IMG/VR virus record: IMGVR_UViG_2541047681_000005
Reading direction: 5' to 3' (one strand)
From: a virus
Taxonomy: Duplodnaviria; Heunggongvirae; Uroviricota; Caudoviricetes
Length of the DNA: 12,615 bases
Notes under the pieces: generated by a model
What the model was told of the DNA's origin: nothing
The model's database searches: none
What the model saw: only the letters and a program-made list of their open reading frames with translations
Part shown: positions 3,351-12,615 of the stretch, in pieces
Position numbering within the stretch: the first letter of the stretch is position 1
Layout of the letters: every line of letters starts with the position of its first letter
Made by a program: the position numbers and the translations under genes

Positions 3351-3570
3351 AACCACACCGGACGCAGCAGAAGAAGCAATGCAAATACTGATACGTGCGC
3401 TCGTTGATGTTACCCACATGGTGGAGATTATGGAGAGAAAATCACAGTCGGAGCACGACAAAAGAAAACTTAAAACAATAAAAATAATTGCCAAAAACTC
3501 GCTGATAAAAGTTACAGACATCCTTAATGAGGACATTAAAAGAATAAGGGAGAAAATTTGTGATGCATAA
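3340..3570 (+). CDS. Hypothetical protein (76 aa)
   Basis: ATG at 3340 preceded by RBS GGAGGGG, overlapping the previous gene by 11 nt. The longer six-frame ORF 3286..3570 probably starts at this internal ATG. No family recognised. Confidence 0.5.
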   Translation: MCNKTTPDAAEEAMQILIRALVDVTHMVEIMERKSQSEHDKRKLKTIKIIAKNSLIKVTDILNEDIKRIREKICDA

Positions 3571-3795: not shown

Positions 3796-4095
3796 ATGAA
3801 ACTTAAATATTCTGGCTTAACTGCCAGTGGCAAAACTCGCACTAAATTCATGCGCGGTGATATTTACCGCGACCAGTACGGCGGCACGGTAATGATTAAG
3901 GGCGTGGAGGAACGGCGCGTAACCTACCGTCGTGAAGGCTACGAATATGATTGCGTGATGCCTGTTTATCAGTTCGATCGTGATTTTTCTCTGGTGCAGG
4001 CCGTACCGCGTAACGTGCCCACCAGCAGGGAGAAAGCACGCGCCAATATTCAGGAAATAAAAAAGATGCTTAACGTATTCAGGGGTAAGAAATGA
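3796..4095 (+). CDS. Hypothetical protein (99 aa)
   Basis: ATG at 3796 with RBS GGAGA 9 nt upstream; stop overlaps the primase start (ATGA). No family recognised. Confidence 0.55.
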   Translation: MKLKYSGLTASGKTRTKFMRGDIYRDQYGGTVMIKGVEERRVTYRREGYEYDCVMPVYQFDRDFSLVQAVPRNVPTSREKARANIQEIKKMLNVFRGKK

Positions 4096-5846
4096 AACTG
4101 GCACCGAACGTAAAAAAACAACCACGCGGAATAAAACACAAAGACACAGAGGTAATTATTTTCGCGGGTAGTGATGCGTGGTCACATGCAAAACAGTGGC
4201 AGGAGCAGGACGGCCCCGCATCCGGCGATAATGTGCCGCCTGTGTGGCTTGGGCCAAATCAGCTTGCCGAACTTGATGCGCTGAAAATTGTTCCGGATGG
4301 GAAAAAGCGCGTAAGGCTGTACCAGGCCGGAGAACTGGATTTAGTGGAGACCAAAAAGATTGGTCAGAAGCTGGCGGCGGCAGATATTCAGGACGCAAAT
4401 TTTTACCCTGATGGTATGCACGGTCAGAAGGTGGAGAACTGGCGCGAATATCTGGCCCGTGAGCGCCAGAATCTTTCTGATGGTCTGGTCATTGAGCTTC
4501 CGGTAAAGCAAAAGGCGCAACTTTCGCAGATGGCGGACAGTGAGCGCGCGCAGCTGCTTGCCGATCGCTTTGATGGCGTTTGCGTACATCCTGAAAGTGA
4601 AATCGTTCACGTATGGCGCGGCGGGGTATGGTGTCCGGTCAGCACAATGGAACTTAGCCGCGAAATGGTGGCGATCTATTCAGAGCACAGGGCCACTTTC
4701 AGCAAGCGCGTAATCAATAACGCCGTGGAAGCGTTAAAAGTTATTGCCGAACCAATGGGCGAGCCGTCCGGCGATTTGCTGCCGTTCGCCAATGGTGCGC
4801 TTGACCTGAAAACGGGGGAATTTTCCCCGCACACGCCGGAGAACTGGATCACCACGCACAACGGCATTGAGTACACGCCACCAGCACCAGGGGAGAACAT
4901 CCGCGATAACGCGCCAAACTTTCATAAATGGCTTAAGCACGCAGCCGGAAAAGACCCGCGCAAGATGATGCGTATATGTGCCGCGCTGTACATGATTATG
5001 GCGAACCGGTACGACTGGCAGATGTTTATTGAGGCCACCGGAGACGGCGGGAGCGGTAAAAGTACATTCACGCACATAGCCAGCCTTCTGGCAGGGAAAC
5101 AGAACACGGTAAGCGCTGAAATGACATCGCTTGATGATGCTGGTGGACGTGCGCAGGTTGTCGGGAGTCGTCTTATCGTCCTGGCTGACCAGCCGAAATA
5201 TACAGGCGAAGGAACGGGCATCAAGAAAATCACGGGCGGTGACCCCGTGGAAATTAACCCGAAATACGAAAAGCGTTTCACGGCTGTAATCAGGGCGGTG
5301 GTGCTGGCGACCAACAATAACCCGATGATATTCACCGAACGGGCCGGAGGTGTGGCACGTCGTCGCGTGATTTTCCGTTTCGACAATATCGTCAGTGAGG
5401 CCGAAAAAGACAGGGAGCTACCGGAAAAGATCGCGGCTGAAATCCCTGTCATTATCCGCCGATTGCTGGCGAACTTTACCGACCCTGAGAAGGCACGGGC
5501 TTTACTACTGGAACAGCGTGACGGTGATGAAGCACTGGCAATAAAGCAACAGACGGATCCGGTTATTGAGTTTTGCCAGTTCCTGAATTTTCTGGAGGAA
5601 GCGCGCGGCCTGATGATGGGGGGCGGTGGCGATTCAGTGAAGTACACGACCAGGAACAGCCTTTACCGCGTCTATCTGGCGTTTATGGCATACGCAGGCA
5701 GGAGCAAACCGCTAAACGTAAATGACTTTGGAAAGGCTATGAAGCCTGCCGCAAAAGTTTACGGACATGAATATATTACGCGGAAAGTTAAGGGGGTAAC
5801 GCAGACTAACGCAATAACAACAGACGAGTGCGACGCGTTTTTATAA
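4092..5846 (+). CDS. Replication primase/helicase, P4-alpha / D5-like family with P-loop NTPase domain
   Basis: 584-aa ORF with RBS AGGGG upstream; Walker A motif GDGGSGKST, followed by a hydrophobic strand (LIVLADQP) consistent with Walker B. Position after int-alpA and immediately before an iteron cluster matches satellite pri-rep genes. Confidence 0.9.
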   Translation: MKLAPNVKKQPRGIKHKDTEVIIFAGSDAWSHAKQWQEQDGPASGDNVPPVWLGPNQLAELDALKIVPDGKKRVRLYQAGELDLVETKKIGQKLAAADIQDANFYPDGMHGQKVENWREYLARERQNLSDGLVIELPVKQKAQLSQMADSERAQLLADRFDGVCVHPESEIVHVWRGGVWCPVSTMELSREMVAIYSEHRATFSKRVINNAVEALKVIAEPMGEPSGDLLPFANGALDLKTGEFSPHTPENWITTHNGIEYTPPAPGENIRDNAPNFHKWLKHAAGKDPRKMMRICAALYMIMANRYDWQMFIEATGDGGSGKSTFTHIASLLAGKQNTVSAEMTSLDDAGGRAQVVGSRLIVLADQPKYTGEGTGIKKITGGDPVEINPKYEKRFTAVIRAVVLATNNNPMIFTERAGGVARRRVIFRFDNIVSEAEKDRELPEKIAAEIPVIIRRLLANFTDPEKARALLLEQRDGDEALAIKQQTDPVIEFCQFLNFLEEARGLMMGGGGDSVKYTTRNSLYRVYLAFMAYAGRSKPLNVNDFGKAMKPAAKVYGHEYITRKVKGVTQTNAITTDECDAFL

Positions 5847-5860
5847 TTTTTTGTAATTGC

Positions 5861-6086
5861 TGTCTACCCTGTCTACCTGAGTAAAGAAAAATACATTTAA
5901 TTCAGTGCATTAAGTTAGGTAGACAGCCTTTTTTTACTGTCTACCCACTATCTACCCTCTCTACCTGATTTTACCTGAATCAGACAGGGAGGTAGACACG
6001 GGGTAGATAGTGGATAAAAGCACTCTACCCCGCTGAAAGCCGCGCCATTACTGGCATGAGGGCCACTAAGGTAGATAAGGTAGACA
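5861..6086. repeat. Iteron cluster, putative replication origin
   Basis: About 11 copies of the core TCTACC / GGTAGA in both orientations (TGTCTACC at 5861, 5870, 5938; ATCTACCC 5950; CTCTACC 5959 and 6023; GGTAGACA 5918, 5991, 6079; GGTAGATA 6002, 6070), with an AT-rich stretch at 5880..5915. Directly downstream of the primase stop. Confidence 0.7.
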
Positions 6087-6134
6087 AGGGGAGGCACAAC
6101 TCAAAACTTTTTAAACGAGGGGGTAAAAATAAAT

Positions 6135-7247: not shown

Positions 7248-7454
7248 ATGGCTGAAGAGAAAAAAGGCGGTGTTTCGGTGTACATAAGCCCCGAAATCGT
7301 GGAGGTGCTCAAGCAGCGCCACAAAAAAAACTATGAGGCTGGCGTGGCGGCTGGACTGGATCCGCTGATGACGCCGGAGCCGTCGATAGGTTCACTTGTA
7401 CGCTCTTATTTACTTGCGGCGCTTGGGATGCATAAAAATTATGGGGGTGAATAA
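7248..7454 (+). CDS. Hypothetical protein (68 aa), translationally coupled to the major capsid gene
   Basis: ATG at 7248 with RBS AGAGGA; its stop TAA overlaps the capsid ATG (TAATG). No family recognised. Confidence 0.55.
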   Translation: MAEEKKGGVSVYISPEIVEVLKQRHKKNYEAGVAAGLDPLMTPEPSIGSLVRSYLLAALGMHKNYGGE

Positions 7455-8509
7455 TGGCAGGCAAAGCAACGGCACTTAACACTAACCAGCTTTTCATGTA
7501 CCTGAATCGCGGGGATATTGCGGATTTTAAATTCAGCCCTCTGTTTACTACGCTGTTTTTCCCGAACGTGGCGACATTCAGCACGCAAAACATCATGCTG
7601 GATACCCTGGACATTGAAGAAGTCACCATGTCGGCGTTTTGTTCGCCTATGGTGGGTAGCCAGGTTCAGCGCGATAAAGGGTACGAAACCAGCACGATTA
7701 AACCTGGCTACATGAAGCCAAAGCACGAAATCGATCCAACGAAAACCATCATGCGCATGGCTGGAGAAGATCCGGCACAGCTTAACGACCCTACCTATCG
7801 CCGTATGCGCCTGATTACTGGCAATATGCGCCGCCAGATAAACGCCATAAAAGCGCGCGTGGAATGGCTGGCGGTAAATGCGGTAACGACCGGAAAAAAC
7901 ATCATTGAGGGCGAAGGCATAGAGCGCTATGAAATCGACTGGAAGATACCGGAAAAAAACATCATAGAGCAGGCCGACGGGAAAAAATGGTCAGAGCAGG
8001 ACAAAGAAACCCACGATCCAATCTATGATATCGAACTATACGCCGATCAGGCTGGTTGCCCCGCAAACGTCATGATTATGGGCGCTGAGGTATGGCGAAC
8101 GTTACGCAGCTTTAAAAAATTCCGTGAGCTGTACGATCTTTCCCGTGGTTCAGAATCCGCCGCCGAACTGGCCTGTAAAAACCTGGGCGAAGTGGTGAGC
8201 TTTAAAGGCTATCTTGGTGATCTGGCCCTTATCGTCTATTCCGGCAAATACACTGACAGCGATGGTACCGAAAAATATTTCCTTGAGCCTGATTTGCTGG
8301 TCCTGGGCAACACCAACAATAAAGGGCTGGTGGCCTATGGTGCGATAATGGATCAGGAAGCGGTAAGAACGGGCGCAACACAAAACATGTTTTACCCGAA
8401 AAACTGGATTGAGGACGGCGATCCGGCGATTGAGTACGTGCAGACACACAGTGCACCGCAGCCGGTACCGGCAGATATTCGCAAATTTGTTACCGTCAAA
8501 ATTGGTTAA
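7454..8509 (+). CDS. Major capsid protein, lambda gpE family
   Basis: 351-aa product aligns by eye along its length with lambda gpE (341 aa): [163 protein letters not shown] upstream. Confidence 0.9.
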   Translation: [351 protein letters not shown]

Positions 8510-8521
8510 CGGGGGGATTCT

Positions 8522-8857
8522 ATGGACACTCCATACATTGAGTTATTTGCAGGCAGTCAGCAGGTCGCCACGACGCTGGTACATTTTGCCGCTGATGCTG
8601 GCGTTATTCAGGAATTTACCCCGCTGATGCTGGCAGACAATGGCGAGTTTAAGCCGTGGGATGGTCAGGAATCTGGCAAGGCTGTTTATCTGACCTCGTA
8701 CCCTGTGGACACGTCAAAGCAGAAATCAGCACAGTGTTACAAGACGGGGATTTTCAATATTGCCGCCGTTAACTGGCCTGAGAGCGTCGACACCGATGCG
8801 AAAAAATGCGCCGCCTTTGCGGGTTCTGGCGTATCCGTTCAGCCGCTGGCCCGATAA
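8522..8857 (+). CDS. Head decoration protein, lambda gpD family
   Basis: 111-aa product (lambda gpD is 110 aa) with TPLMLADNGEFKPWDG vs TPLMLDTSSRKLVAWDG and YKTGIFNIAAVNWPESVDTDAKKCAAFAGSGVSVQ vs [44 protein letters not shown] upstream. Order is capsid then decoration, the reverse of lambda (D then E). Confidence 0.85.
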   Translation: MDTPYIELFAGSQQVATTLVHFAADAGVIQEFTPLMLADNGEFKPWDGQESGKAVYLTSYPVDTSKQKSAQCYKTGIFNIAAVNWPESVDTDAKKCAAFAGSGVSVQPLAR

Positions 8858-8869
8858 GCAGGGGGAACG

Positions 8870-9283
8870 ATGGCAACGAATGAAAGCGTCATGACGCTAC
8901 CGCTGGCGAGTAAATTTAAAGCCGAAGCGCGGGCAATGGCTGACAGAGGTTTATCAACCTACGAGGCCGTATATCAACTCAACAAACTGGAAGAGCAGGA
9001 CAAGCCGCGCGCTGATGCGATTATGGCGCTTCATGAACATAACGACTATCAGCCGCTGTTACGTGCAATGGCAAACGTGCCATGTATTAGCGTCGATAAT
9101 GCTCGTGAAATCCTGAACATGACCATAGAGCAGGAGCGCCCAAAGGTTGCGCCGGAGCTTACCGCAGCCTTTGAAAACTTTATGGACATGCACAGCCCGA
9201 AAGCCGTATCACCCGGCATGGCATACGACGGCAGAAACCAGGGCGATGAAGGCGACGTCGATCGCATACTGAAAACCATCTGA
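8870..9283 (+). CDS. Hypothetical protein (137 aa), last gene before cos
   Basis: ATG at 8870 with RBS AGGGGGA; followed by a strong terminator. No clear similarity to lambda FI or other remembered head proteins. Confidence 0.6.
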   Translation: MATNESVMTLPLASKFKAEARAMADRGLSTYEAVYQLNKLEEQDKPRADAIMALHEHNDYQPLLRAMANVPCISVDNAREILNMTIEQERPKVAPELTAAFENFMDMHSPKAVSPGMAYDGRNQGDEGDVDRILKTI

Positions 9284-9312: not shown

Positions 9313-9445
9313 ACGGGTCCTTTCCGGCATATGGACCCGTTACGGGGCGGCGACCTCGCGGGTTTTCGCTATTTATGACGTTTTTCCGTGAAGGTGACAC
9401 CACCACCACTTGATTAATATTTAACCATGCGGTTAAGGTAACATT
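9313..9445 (+). other. Lambda-type cos site (cosQ-like, cosN, short cosB) upstream of the TerS-like gene
   Basis: TACGGGTCCTTTCCGG...GTTACG|GGGCGGCGACCTCGCGGGTTTTCGCTATTTATGA closely matches the lambda cohesive-end region as remembered. Predicted 12-nt cohesive end GGGCGGCGACCT at 9345..9356. One R-site-like element (CGTTTTTCCGTG, about 9381..9392) and an AT-rich stretch follow. Confidence 0.75.
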
Positions 9446-9886
9446 ATGATTGATAAAGCTTGTTTTGTAAGTCAGCAGGAAATAGCTGAACATTTCAAGG
9501 TTAACAGAACCACTATTCGCGCATGGACCAAACAGGGGATGCCGTATCTTAATGCGGATCGCGGAAAGTCTGGCGGTTATCACATCGGGCATACATTGCT
9601 TTGGTCTTCAGGTAAAAGCCGTCTTGAGGCCATCAGATATCACGTAGAAACCAGTGCGCTGGAAAAAATTATGTTTGCCAGGCTGCTTTCATCTGAGCGT
9701 GACGAGTACTCCAGTGAAGAAACAGAACATCGATTTGATGAAGGTTTGCAGATTTACGGCTATTCACCGGAAGATGTGAGCAAGGCACGAAATAAAATGG
9801 CTGGCTTTCTGGCTGGGTGGCGTCATGCCGTAAGCGTTCGCCGTGCCAGCATGGAACAATCAGTCGTTACAGAACAGCAAAGTTAA
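9446..9886 (+). CDS. Small terminase-like protein, lambda Nu1-type DNA-binding N-terminus with divergent C-terminus (TerS/Rpp-like)
   Basis: 146-aa ORF about 90 bp downstream of cosN, as Nu1 is in lambda. N-terminus QQEIAEHFKVNRTTIRAWTKQGMPYL aligns with Nu1 KKQLADIFGASIRTIQNWQEQGMPVL (winged HTH). Shorter than Nu1 (181 aa) and the C-terminal region does not resemble Nu1's. Confidence 0.7.
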   Translation: MIDKACFVSQQEIAEHFKVNRTTIRAWTKQGMPYLNADRGKSGGYHIGHTLLWSSGKSRLEAIRYHVETSALEKIMFARLLSSERDEYSSEETEHRFDEGLQIYGYSPEDVSKARNKMAGFLAGWRHAVSVRRASMEQSVVTEQQS

Positions 9887-10090: not shown

Positions 10091-10145
10091 GCGAAAAACC
10101 GCGAGGTCGCCGCCCCGTAACGGGCCATAATTCCAGGAAGGACCC
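10091..10145 (-). other. Second cos-like sequence in inverted orientation (cosQ/cosN-like, no recognisable cosB)
   Basis: Reverse complement of 10091..10145 reads CGGGTCCTTCCTGGAATTATGGCCCGTTACGGGGCGGCGACCTCGCGGTTTTTCGCTATTTATGA, about 85% identical to cos at 9313..9380 including an intact GGGCGGCGACCT. No R-site-like element or TerS gene follows it on the minus strand. Confidence 0.6.
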
Positions 10146-10179: not shown

Positions 10180-10461
10180 ATGACAGAAGCCGAAATACTG
10201 CGATTAATCCGCCGCGTTGCCGGAATCAGCCAGCAGCATGACGAACAGGCCACGCAGCCGGACAGCGTGACCGCTGAAAATTATGTGCGTGTTGTTGCTG
10301 AGGTGATGCGCCGTGATGGTATCCAGCTTAATGATGTTGATATGCGCGACATACGGATCCGCGTTCTGGAAATGCTGGCCTACAATCGCCGCGTTGAACT
10401 GTATCGGGAGAAAGAAAAAATAACGTACCACTGGAAGAAGCCGGAGCGGTTGCGGCGGTAA
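10180..10461 (+). CDS. Hypothetical protein (93 aa)
   Basis: ATG at 10180 with RBS GGGGGC upstream; charged product (MTEAEILRLIRRVAG...). No family recognised. Whether it belongs to the satellite or the junction region is unresolved. Confidence 0.5.
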   Translation: MTEAEILRLIRRVAGISQQHDEQATQPDSVTAENYVRVVAEVMRRDGIQLNDVDMRDIRIRVLEMLAYNRRVELYREKEKITYHWKKPERLRR

Positions 10462-11154
10462 CTGGTTGATATTTTCGAAATTCGCCAGCGGCGAACATCG
10501 GGGAAACCAGCCTAACCCGTTGATATTTTCGGAAACCTCAATTTGAGGAAGTCGGCGCGGTAACTCGCTGAACTTAAAGCAAAGCGCAAAATTGCGCTTG
10601 CTGAATAATCATTATGATTACGCAGATGATTAAGGAATGACCGAAGGCGGAAATTCGCCTGTGGTTAATGGGGGAGTTGCAGATCTGCAACTCGACCATG
10701 AAACTACGGAAACTACCCGTAGTTTGGGTAGTAAGAGTAACACCCAGATTTTGGGGCTTACTCGTGATACCCAAATTTGGGGTATCGGTGGCAACCATAA
10801 CGACTTTCGTTACGGTTGATGCTTTTACCCCATTGGGGGAAAGGTATTACGATAATCATAACACCTACCGAACAGGTAAAGCCCACCAGCCTGATTAACG
10901 TTTAACCGGAAAAAAATTCCGGTAGGTGGGGATCCCCATATAGACATTAACGCCCCTCATGAATTGGTGCGCTTCCCCCTGGAAAGATGATCCGCCTGTA
11001 TATTTCTTGTGTCTATTTGTTCCACGTTGTTTCATACGGTGCACCGAACGGTGTAGTTAATGGTGTAGTCAATTTGCGATTTTTGGCACTTTTTCAGTGT
11101 AGATTATTTAATTAAATCAATGGTTTGTCTTGATATAGTGATAAAAGGACATAT
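10462..11154. other. Palindrome-dense non-coding tract between the last satellite ORF and phoQ (possible attR region or structured RNA)
   Basis: No convincing ORF. Direct repeat TAAC-nGTTGATATTTTCG-AAA at about 10459 and 10513. Hairpin-forming palindromes roughly every 30 bp, e.g. AAGCGCAAAATTGCGCTT, GTTGCAGATCTGCAAC, GATACCCAAATTTGGGGTATC, CCGGAAAAAAATTCCGG, TGGGGATCCCCA, CGGTGCACCG. Tandem GGTGTAGT(T/C)AAT at 11050..11073. Confidence 0.4.
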
Positions 11155-12615
11155 TTATTCATCTTTCGGCGCAGAATGCTGGCGACCAAAAATCACTTCC
11201 ATCCGCGCACCGCCCAGCATGCTCTCTCCGGCGACGATTTTACCCTCATATTGCTCGGTGATTTCGCGGGCTACCGCCAGCCCCACACCTTGCCCAGGGC
11301 GTAAAGTATCAACCCGTTGACCACGGTCGAAAATGACCTCTCGCTTGCTTAATGGAATACCGGGGCCATCATCCTCGACCACAATATAGAGATGCTCGTC
11401 GGTTTGCCTTGCAGAAATTTCGACAAACTCGAGGCAATATTTACAGGCGTTATCCAGCACGTTGCCCATCACTTCGACAAAATCATTCTGCTCACCAACA
11501 AAGCTGATTTCTGGCGAGATATCGAGAGAGATATTGACCCCTTTGCGTTGATACACTTTGTTCAGCGCCGAGGTGAGATTGTCCAACAGTGGCGCGACCG
11601 GATGCAGCTCGCGGCTAAGCAATGTCCCGCCGCGCATACTGGCACGATGCAGGTAGTAGCCAATTTGCTGTGAAATGCGGCTGATTTGCTCCAGCATTAC
11701 CGGCTCAGCATCACTGACGCTCATCTTCTCACTACGCAGAGAACGCAGCGTACTTTGCAGCACCGCCAGTGGCGTTTTCAGACTATGGGTCAGGTCGGTG
11801 AGCGTTGTACGATATTTGTCGTAACGTTCGCGTTCACTTTTTAACAGTCGGTTCAGGTTTCGTACCAGACTGGTCAGTTCTCGCGTTGTGGCTGGATTGA
11901 GCAATTCACGGTTATGTTCTTCCAGTTCGCGGACTTCTTTTGCCAGGGCTTCGATGGGGCGTAAACTCCACCAGGCGGCGACCCACAGCAGCGGGATCAC
12001 TAACAGCAGATTGGCTGAGAGCACATAGATAAACCAGCTCCAGACCATATAGGAACTTTTTAGCTCCACCGGAATGGTATCCACCACCACAATGGTTAAC
12101 TTTGGCATCCGCGATGTTGCCGGGTAGACGTTTACCGCCACCGAGTGGGTCATCTCCGCGTCGTCATCATCTTCCCGCACTTCCTGCAACTGTTGCTGTA
12201 TCGAATGATCTCCACTCAGCAAGAGGCTGGTATCGTTAACATCCGCTTCAATTTCATGAAAACCATTCGATTTCAGCCAGTCAGGCTGGATCATCTTCAT
12301 CAGCCAGGGCACGTCACGTTGCGCCCATAAAAGCTGCCCGTTCTCATCATAAATTAGTGTCATCGTGGGGCTTTGCTTGTCGATATTTTCGGGTAACTCG
12401 ACATGCAACTTATTGTTTTCCCACTTCGCAAGGGTATAGAACAGATTGCTCTCGCCACGTAACAGCCGAAACGTGGTTTTATCGAAACTGACGCTATAAC
12501 CGATCAGCGCAACCATTCCGTAGGCAAGCGAAAGCACCAATACTACTGCTGCCGTTGCTAACAGAAAACGTACCCGCAGCGAGAGCGGGAAAAAAAGATG
12601 CAGTAATTTTTTCAT
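11155..12615 (-). CDS. phoQ: Sensor histidine kinase PhoQ (PhoP/PhoQ two-component system), complete
   Basis: 486-aa minus-strand ORF whose ATG is the last codon of the window. Two transmembrane segments, periplasmic acidic cluster EDDDDAE, H-box [15 protein letters not shown] and G-box DDGPGIP; reads as full-length Escherichia/Shigella-type PhoQ. Confidence 0.97.

Follow-up and report, generated by a model that had tools for sequence, protein, structure and literature searches.

The window analysed here is a stretch of 12,615 nucleotides of a virus of the Caudoviricetes (IMG/VR record IMGVR_UViG_2541047681_000005), and the subject of this report is the tract at positions 10462-11154, which lies between a small open reading frame of 93 aa, ORF93 (10180-10461, + strand), and the stop of phoQ (11155-12615, - strand). 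The tract forms the non-coding tail at the right-hand end of a lambda-dependent phage-inducible chromosomal island (PICI) of the Rpp/cos type, about 11 kb long and located between roxA and phoQ. Its non-coding part of about 560 bp starts on the stop codon of ORF93 with three tandem units, each consisting of a box for integration host factor (IHF) and a short hairpin, and continues with a conserved core of 123 bp and further palindromes, several of which are common to the capsid-forming PICI (cf-PICI) EcCIEDL933. The last ~130 bp (about 11024-11156) have the layout of a classical attP arm, with putative arm-type sites, an IHF consensus and the att core. The PICI type is known and the att arm is ordinary; the tail appears, from its sequence, to be a satellite-specific extragenic IHF/palindrome element attached to the attP arm. 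The features of the tract are the following.

10459-10495, + strand: unit 1, exact IHF box TAACTGGTTGATA (10459-10471) and hairpin TTCGCC-agc-GGCGAA (10481-10495)
10513-10548, + strand: unit 2, exact IHF box TAACCCGTTGATA (10513-10525) and hairpin CCTCAA-t-TTGAGG (10536-10548)
10561-10620, + strand: unit 3, degenerate box TAACTCGCTGAAC, hairpin AAGCGCAA-aa-TTGCGCTT (10582-10599) and palindrome TAATCATTATGATTA (10606-10620)
10646-10659, + strand: hairpin HP0, GGCG-gaaatt-CGCC, just 5' of the core
10669-10791, + strand: conserved core of 123 bp with four palindromes (HP1 to HP4)
10674-10693: HP1, GAGTTGCAGATCTGCAACTC, a perfect 20-bp palindrome
10701-10732: HP2, two direct and two inverted repeats (AAACTAC / GTAGTTT) with overlapping alternative stems
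10735-10763: HP3, a two-tier stem
10766-10786: HP4, GATACCC-n7-GGGTATC
10798-10812, + strand: TAACGA-ctt-TCGTTA, common to EcCIEDL933
10829-10839, + strand: palindrome CCCCATTGGGG, common to EcCIEDL933
10883-10890, - strand: Chi site GCTGGTGG
10905-10923, + strand: ACCGGAA-aaaaa-TTCCGGT, common to EcCIEDL933
10927-10938, + strand: palindrome TGGGGATCCCCA, common to EcCIEDL933
11050-11073, + strand: tandem 12-mers GGTGTAGTTAAT / GGTGTAGTCAAT, putative integrase arm-type sites
11115-11127, - strand: exact IHF consensus CAAACCATTGATT, between the arm-type sites and the att core
11147-11156, no strand assigned: att core GGACATATTT

The palindromes are much denser than chance would give. We counted 14 perfect inverted repeats in 10462-11154 (stem of at least 6, loop of at most 8), against 1.51 +/- 1.24 (maximum 7) in dinucleotide shuffles, none of 500 of which reached 14; for stems of at least 7 the numbers were 8 in the tract and 0.40 in the shuffles. 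No 693-bp stretch of the window clear of the tract held more than 5. The initial annotation of this DNA had thus been right to report at least ten hairpin-capable palindromes and to call their density unusual, and the two other repeats that it described are there as well: the 23-bp imperfect direct repeat as 22 nt with 86% identity (10459-10480 and 10513-10534), and the tandem 12-bp repeat at 11050-11073 (copies at 11051-11061 and 11063-11073).

Both copies of the 22-nt direct repeat match the IHF consensus YAANNNNTTGATW literally, and the TAA of the IHF box in unit 1 is the stop codon of ORF93. A hairpin with an A/T-rich apex begins 5-9 nt past each box. This combination was found to be widespread: across 89 tails an exact IHF box on the + strand was present in 79, compared with 0.022 expected per 900 nt, and a perfect stem of at least 5 bp followed within 34 nt after 67% of the distinct boxes (15% after shuffling), or one of at least 6 bp after 48% (4% after shuffling); box plus hairpin is enriched roughly 50-fold. 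The stems themselves are diverse, with 19 distinct sequences after the boxes, all of them Watson-Crick in their core, and the changes seen between close relatives are in several cases clearly compensatory, as for unit 3 (GCGCA/TGCGC to GCTCA/TGAGC in loci L089 and L090) and unit 2 (CCTCA/TGAGG to CCCCC/GGGGG in L091). Likewise, the position of HP0 is taken in other satellites by ACGCA/TGCGT, AGTGCA/TGCACT, GCCCA/TGGGT or GAAAT/ATTTC. The number of units varies from 1 to 5 across tails, with fossil 3' ends of ORF93 preceding internal units; a Salmonella-like locus (L083) in which ORF93 has only 43% identity has kept 4-5 box/hairpin units, and the Salmonella small RNA STnc290 is located near it.

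The most widely shared piece of the tract is the core (10669-10791). In 52 loci its mean identity to the window was 95.8%, against 83.7% for ORF93 and 74.9% for the third codon positions of ORF93, although the core value is somewhat inflated by the use of exact anchors inside the core for finding these loci. An anchor-free search of E. coli genomes agrees with the core being more conserved than ORF93: identity to the window was at least 95% in 425 of 706 core copies, against 26 of 1567 copies of ORF93. Over 35 distinct core variants 97% of the structure cells were paired, a count that says little because most core pairs never vary. More informative variation is found in HP4, where L050 has the fully compensated stem GATCCCC/GGGGATC, and in HP1 and HP4, where loops vary over fixed stems; the HP1 loop is GATC, GATT or AATT, the upper 5 bp of the HP1 stem are kept in every variant, and a mismatch near the stem base occurs in L087 only. 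For three frequent C/T polymorphisms of the core, G-U pairing is preserved only on the + strand. The stretch 10660-10840 folds with -85.2 kcal/mol on the + strand (z = -8.5) and with -75.9 kcal/mol on the - strand (z = -8.8), in both cases far more stably than shuffled sequence.

Of 5426 complete E. coli genomes, 1495 contain parts of the tract, with as many as 6 places in one genome. For instance, 10512-11128 is 97% identical to the 3' end of EcCIEDL933 (in tqsA of O157:H7), where the match comes after the terL gene and an ORF93 homologue of that island, and the core likewise comes after ORF93 in satellites at tRNA-Ile and clpS that encode a ClpP-capsid fusion and a DUF1441 protein. The same architecture ends satellites with at least 4 integration sites and several packaging modules, including the Salmonella-like relative. 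All genome and IMG/VR copies for which the context was inspected were satellite tails downstream of ORF93, and a contig scan for wider sampling of the tail gave one Shigella locus; no similarity to the tract was found in 50,697 phage records, distant mode included. In the 70 loci that could be oriented, the core is on the same strand as ORF93 and downstream of it, most commonly at a spacing of 48-51 nt (215 nt in the window).

Tails differ in what lies between and behind these elements. Some satellites have inserts of 160-740 nt between ORF93 and the core, some carry the core twice, and after HP4 two alternative sequences occur, independent of the integrase type. In L087 and L092 an abortive-infection gene (Abi_C) is located between the core and attR. 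Of the initial suggestion that the tract holds a decayed accessory (defence) locus, the idea of a cargo slot is therefore reasonable, with Abi_C at the same position in these two loci, whereas decay of a coding locus is not, because the palindromes are kept by compensatory changes and the core is better conserved than the adjacent gene. Between the two core copies of L011 (4640-4830) we noted an origin-like arrangement of three TTGCGGGTTAT motifs, an AT-rich stretch and three inverted AACCCGC motifs.

Chi sites are also a regular part of the tails: in most of them a Chi sequence TTGGCTGGTGGGT is found on the + strand within the sequence after the last unit hairpin, just 5' of HP1. The island of the window as a whole contains 9 exact copies of Chi (885, 2296, 5139, 6439 and 8326 on the + strand; 3035, 4019, 4878 and 10883 on the - strand), compared with 0.37 expected from shuffles, and the phoQ part contains none. 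Over 716 kb of related satellite loci the density was 0.79 per kb, several times that of the E. coli chromosome, which has roughly 0.2 per kb. The excess of Chi might shield the satellite DNA, in its linear or rolling-circle form, from RecBCD.

The right boundary of the island had been placed somewhere within the tract; we find the junction in its last 10 bp. The att core (11147-11156) is directly repeated at attL (3359-3368 in locus L001, in which the island spans ~11.4 kb from attL to attR) and overlaps the phoQ stop codon (11155-11157), so that everything to the left of it is island DNA. Comparison of attL and attR with attB of E. coli K-12 (GGGCATATTT) gives the core GGRCATATTT, and an attR had indeed been among the possibilities raised. 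Comparison with an island-free genome had been named beforehand as the way to tell the tract from ordinary host intergenic DNA: the roxA-phoQ spacer of K-12 is 75 bp long and has nothing of the tract in it. The tract is thus satellite DNA, and its reading as host intergenic DNA was rejected.

The proposal of binding-site arrays also holds, as far as can be judged from the letters of the DNA, in the form of putative integrase arm-type repeats and IHF consensus sites. At attL the 12-mer GGTGTAGTTAAT occurs twice (L001 3494-3517), 23-46 bp upstream of the start codon of int, and a GTTGTTTCA-type motif precedes both 12-mer pairs (the GTTGTTTCA motif at 11028-11036 is common to attL). Because the pair recurs beside int at attL, we read the 12-mers as probable integrase arm-type sites, which fits with their presence in the clpS island (L005) and their absence from a tRNA-Ile island with a different, longer integrase (L004). 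The remaining 560 bp, on the other hand, are not integrase-specific, since satellites whose att sites are unrelated and whose integrase differs (L004) have them too. An excised satellite is available as a 10,790-bp circular 'plasmid' record (L088, NZ_CP148328.1) with int, alpA, a primase gene, the ClpP-capsid fusion, DUF1441 and ORF93, in which ORF93, 721 nt of non-coding DNA and int follow each other on one strand; this record shows only that such islands exist as circles.

We propose that the tail is an extragenic element resembling the repetitive extragenic palindromic (REP) sequences and bacterial interspersed mosaic elements (BIMEs), made of non-terminating hairpins and IHF-bent DNA, and that it also serves as a junction for cargo and module exchange. 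We hold this with moderate confidence, because the data do not separate it from two alternatives, a structured RNA and a recombination linker, and we infer every functional step of it. At the level of DNA, phased IHF bends would be separated by AT-centred palindromes. At the level of RNA, a chain of non-terminating hairpins would form at the 3' end of a co-directional late operon and could protect or delimit the late transcript while polymerase runs on towards att. Read-through would then cross attP into int in the excised circle or concatemer, and would enter the downstream late genes of the helper in helper-embedded satellites; the tail could in addition act as a junction at which att/int modules and cargo are exchanged.

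Helper-embedded satellites have been described before (10.1101/2022.07.18.500453). Many of the related satellites in our set are located inside a lambda-like terL (the gpA nuclease part, then the portal gene; L009 3838-6667), and those of L087 (2775-4486) and L092 (1446-2509) inside the major capsid E gene of the helper. With an insertion in terL upstream of the portal gene, as in L009, late transcription of the helper would have to cross the satellite, and hairpins that are not terminators fit with the same tail ending satellites inside terL or a capsid gene. The only intrinsic terminator site that we found in the tract is a weak one at the ORF93 stop (10447-10464), and tails have 6.2 perfect hairpins per 400 nt against 0.64 terminator-like sites on the + strand, with no such site in 24 of 58 tails; intrinsic terminators were therefore rejected as an explanation, as most hairpins lack a T-run. 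On the + strand, neither the tract nor the attL-int spacer showed a consensus promoter for int or for a small RNA, and two weak matches on the - strand are at chance level.

The evidence on whether the REP/BIME-like element works as RNA or as DNA is mixed. A role as RNA is suggested by the G-U pattern of the core on the + strand and by an invariable place and direction behind the last gene of a co-directional operon, whereas the IHF consensus and Chi in the tail and the lack of a wobble strand bias in the unit stems suggest a role as DNA. Several observations weigh against the reading as a REP/BIME-like element. Many of the palindromes are perfect through their centre (GATC in HP1, CCCAAATTTGGG, TGGGGATCCCCA and ATTTAATTAAAT), and such palindromes with a spacer of 0-2 nt, together with the missing wobble bias in the units, argue for DNA rather than RNA; the three C/T polymorphisms of the core with their G-U pairs point to RNA instead. 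Covariation within the core is thin, most of its pairs being invariant, and the HP3 stems are lost in the diverged lineage of L087 and L092 (75-77% identity). A REP consensus was not apparent on reading the tract, for which no formal search was made, and the units are not dispersed through the chromosome. Finally, the core is found beside only ~40% of ORF93 copies (803 against 2012 places) and is absent from L091, indicating that it is not essential to every satellite; like the loss of the HP3 stems, this speaks against a strict need for the structure.

The remainder of the island is that of a PICI with an AlpA-type regulator, a primase with an adjacent origin-like region, and no tail or lysis genes. 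In GmF052 an identical island with the same annotation is placed between roxA and phoQ. Besides a gene for a single-stranded DNA-binding protein, the features outside the tract are the following.

1-1230: integrase gene
1258-1313: ACAACG repeats every 10 nt in the int-alpA spacer
1336-1348: exact IHF consensus in the same spacer
4092-5846: gene for a P4-alpha-like primase
5854-6091: origin-like iterons CTGTCTACC(C/T), direct and inverted around an AT-rich centre, directly after the primase gene
7454-9283: genes for a lambda E-like major capsid protein, a gpD-like decoration protein and Nu3/gpC-C-terminal-like proteins
9345-9356, + strand: cosN GGGCGGCGACCT, an exact lambda copy, 90 nt upstream of the 146-aa reading frame
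9446-9886: Rpp-like reading frame of 146 aa, with weak matches to Nu1/TerS-type helix-turn-helix domains
10104-10115, - strand: second exact copy of cosN GGGCGGCGACCT, inverted

The region 1258-1348 is, judging by its motifs, probably regulatory, and 5854-6091 is a candidate replication origin. The capsid-type genes come without portal or terminase genes, so that the island may remodel capsids besides redirecting packaging. The two inverted cosN sites flank the Rpp-like frame and match cos1 and cos2 of EcCICFT073-type PICIs, in which a cos-rpp arrangement with two cos sites and an Rpp of 135-153 residues has been described (PMC6092414, PMC6739421, PMC9026076). ORF93, the last gene before the tail, belongs to no Pfam family and only to an unnamed PHROG, and forms a narrow family (39 representatives at 50% clustering); its AlphaFold model has three helices (mean predicted local distance difference test score, pLDDT, of 69) and no fold match in the PDB at E < 1. 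The best-kept part of this otherwise variable protein is its C-terminus, Y.WKKPERLRR (10426-10461), and as the coding DNA for it runs into the first IHF box, the constraint may act on DNA or RNA and not on the protein.

Two alternatives to the REP/BIME-like element require most attention. The core, together with HP0, could be an undescribed structured RNA of the + strand, cis-acting or processed from a 3' untranslated region, that regulates the satellite (e.g. int after circularisation), the helper or the host. The strong folding (z = -8.5), a nucleotide conservation well above that of the adjacent gene, the fixed orientation downstream of ORF93, the compensatory changes in HP0 and HP4, the + strand G-U pairs retained by three frequent polymorphisms, and a variable HP1 loop on a stem with 5 constant upper bp are all in line with this. 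Nevertheless we consider it rather improbable: the - strand folds almost equally well, an RNA hairpin does not require a palindrome that is perfect at its centre, no consensus promoter or terminator was seen around the core, HP3 is not maintained in the L087 lineage, and only ~40% of the ORF93-bearing satellites have the core. The covariance-model search proposed in the initial annotation likewise brought no support, as none of the 4227 models of Rfam 15 matched the window or the L083, L087 and L088 tails at E <= 1; neither a tRNA nor a tmRNA was found. The tract could also be functionless, an empty cargo slot or recombination linker with layered scars of exchange, in which the core is alike between satellites because it is shared homology, used with the aid of Chi. 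The mosaic structure speaks for this, with 1 to 5 units and, in some satellites, 160-740 nt inserted between ORF93 and the core, as do the ORF93 3'-end fossils before internal units, the two sequences after HP4 irrespective of integrase type, the duplicated cores, the Abi_C cargo gene after the core and the Chi sites, present in most tail versions of Chi-rich islands. Scars, however, would not keep stems complementary, nor an exact IHF box at a roughly 50-fold excess, and the unit design persists in the Salmonella-like relative despite an ORF93 identity of 43%; a tract without function, too, we consider rather improbable.

Coding and packaging functions are less probable still. A small protein, either MKLRKLPVVWVVRVTPRFWGLL[V/A]IPK from the ATG at 10698 or a product of 52-60 aa in the frame (10637/10661-10819) in which some genomes have a 52-aa hypothetical protein annotated by the Prokaryotic Genome Annotation Pipeline (PGAP), at the position corresponding to 10661-10819, is very unlikely. 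Both frames are open in the window and in the common variants, a 9-nt deletion variant keeps the frame, and several polymorphisms are synonymous in one or the other, but synonymous and non-synonymous counts favour no frame, given the few polymorphisms. Moreover, the ATG is destroyed by a 1-nt deletion in L014, the first frame stops after 13 codons in L087, and the PGAP frame, which is not conserved, has no start codon in the commonest variant and a TGA just upstream. Between the two post-HP4 tail types the frames end differently (26 aa against 66 aa), further downstream indels of 7 and 24 nt separate close relatives, and no reading frame of the tract matches Pfam or PHROGs. The absence of a credible coding sequence noted at the outset agrees with these broken frames and missing matches, and with a small residual doubt we treat the tract as non-coding. 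That it is the packaging site (cos or pac) or the replication origin of the satellite would agree with non-coding DNA of cis-acting appearance that has IHF sites and adjoins packaging genes, but this is hardly credible: both exact cosN sites (9345 and 10104) are outside the tract and flank the Rpp-like gene as in the published cos-rpp arrangement (PMC9026076), none is found inside 10462-11154 at up to 3 mismatches, the origin-like iterons are beside the primase gene at 5854-6091, and the same tail ends cf-PICIs that use their own TerS, TerL and HNH proteins. A cos site and a replication origin in the tract were accordingly rejected. On an informal reading of the sequence we also dropped a lambda nut site (boxA/boxB), as the loops are not GNRA-like, and an integron attC site, a LexA box at 10993 and a sigma-54 promoter.

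The REP/BIME-like element that we prefer can be extended to a more far-reaching form, in which the tail is a dedicated cis-regulatory module (units plus core) of enterobacterial PICIs, cf-PICIs and helper-embedded satellites, acting as RNA, as IHF-folded DNA or as both, that couples late transcription to int or to late genes of the helper and so controls re-integration or the late programme of the helper; this we put forward only as a speculation with the odds against it. ORF93-bearing satellites are present in 29% of the complete E. coli genomes (1567/5426) and the core in 13% (706). The non-coding end of these islands is better conserved than anything else at their right side; it separates the packaging genes from att/int and is also the place of cargo such as abortive-infection genes. 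If the units or the core control transcription across att, mRNA stability or module exchange, this would explain why very different satellites share the design of their end, and also how satellites embedded in late genes of the helper let helper transcription through. For annotation, the island boundary can be fixed at the phoQ stop codon, the repeats can be provisionally assigned to integrase and IHF sites, and a PGAP 'hypothetical protein' in the tract should be flagged as doubtful. Term searches in PICI papers that place cos1/cos2, Rpp and capsid genes gave no mention of the non-coding tail, the IHF-box/hairpin units or the 123-bp core, and a full-text literature search with three core sequences returned no paper.

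Compared with known systems, the island as a whole corresponds to the EcCICFT073-type PICIs, with which it has in common the gene order (int-alpA-primase...rpp), two lambda-like cos sites around rpp and a size of ~11 kb. Its right end corresponds to a lambda-type attP/attR, with the same core repeat matching attB, arm repeats on both arms and int beside the other arm, and an IHF consensus between arm sites and core arranged much like the H' site of lambda; this likeness explains only about 11024-11156, and the sites are assigned here from sequence and not from footprints. The strongly folding non-coding segment is reminiscent of the regulatory RNAs of phages and satellites (P4 CI, P1 C4, IsrK), from which it differs in having no Rfam match. 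The par locus of pSC101 and sib of lambda are, like the tail, non-coding stretches of a few hundred bp beside att or ori with many inverted repeats, and their position relative to int shifts between the integrated and the circular form, as it does here. They have no sequence similarity to the tail, and sib, an RNase III site, is downstream of int, whereas the tail is upstream of int in the circle.

The tail also resembles REP sequences and BIME-1. BIME-1 elements (RIP/RIB) are IHF-binding clusters of REP sequences, which are extragenic palindromic units scattered over many loci of the chromosome. The tail differs from them in its heterogeneous stems (19 types), in the restriction of the units to satellites and in the position of the box before a single hairpin instead of between two REPs. 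It has in common with them an extragenic location at the 3' end of a gene, palindromes that are variable but complementary, the lack of a U-tract, and an adjoining IHF consensus, present in the window as exact copies of YAANNNNTTGATW at 10459 and 10513, each followed by a hairpin.

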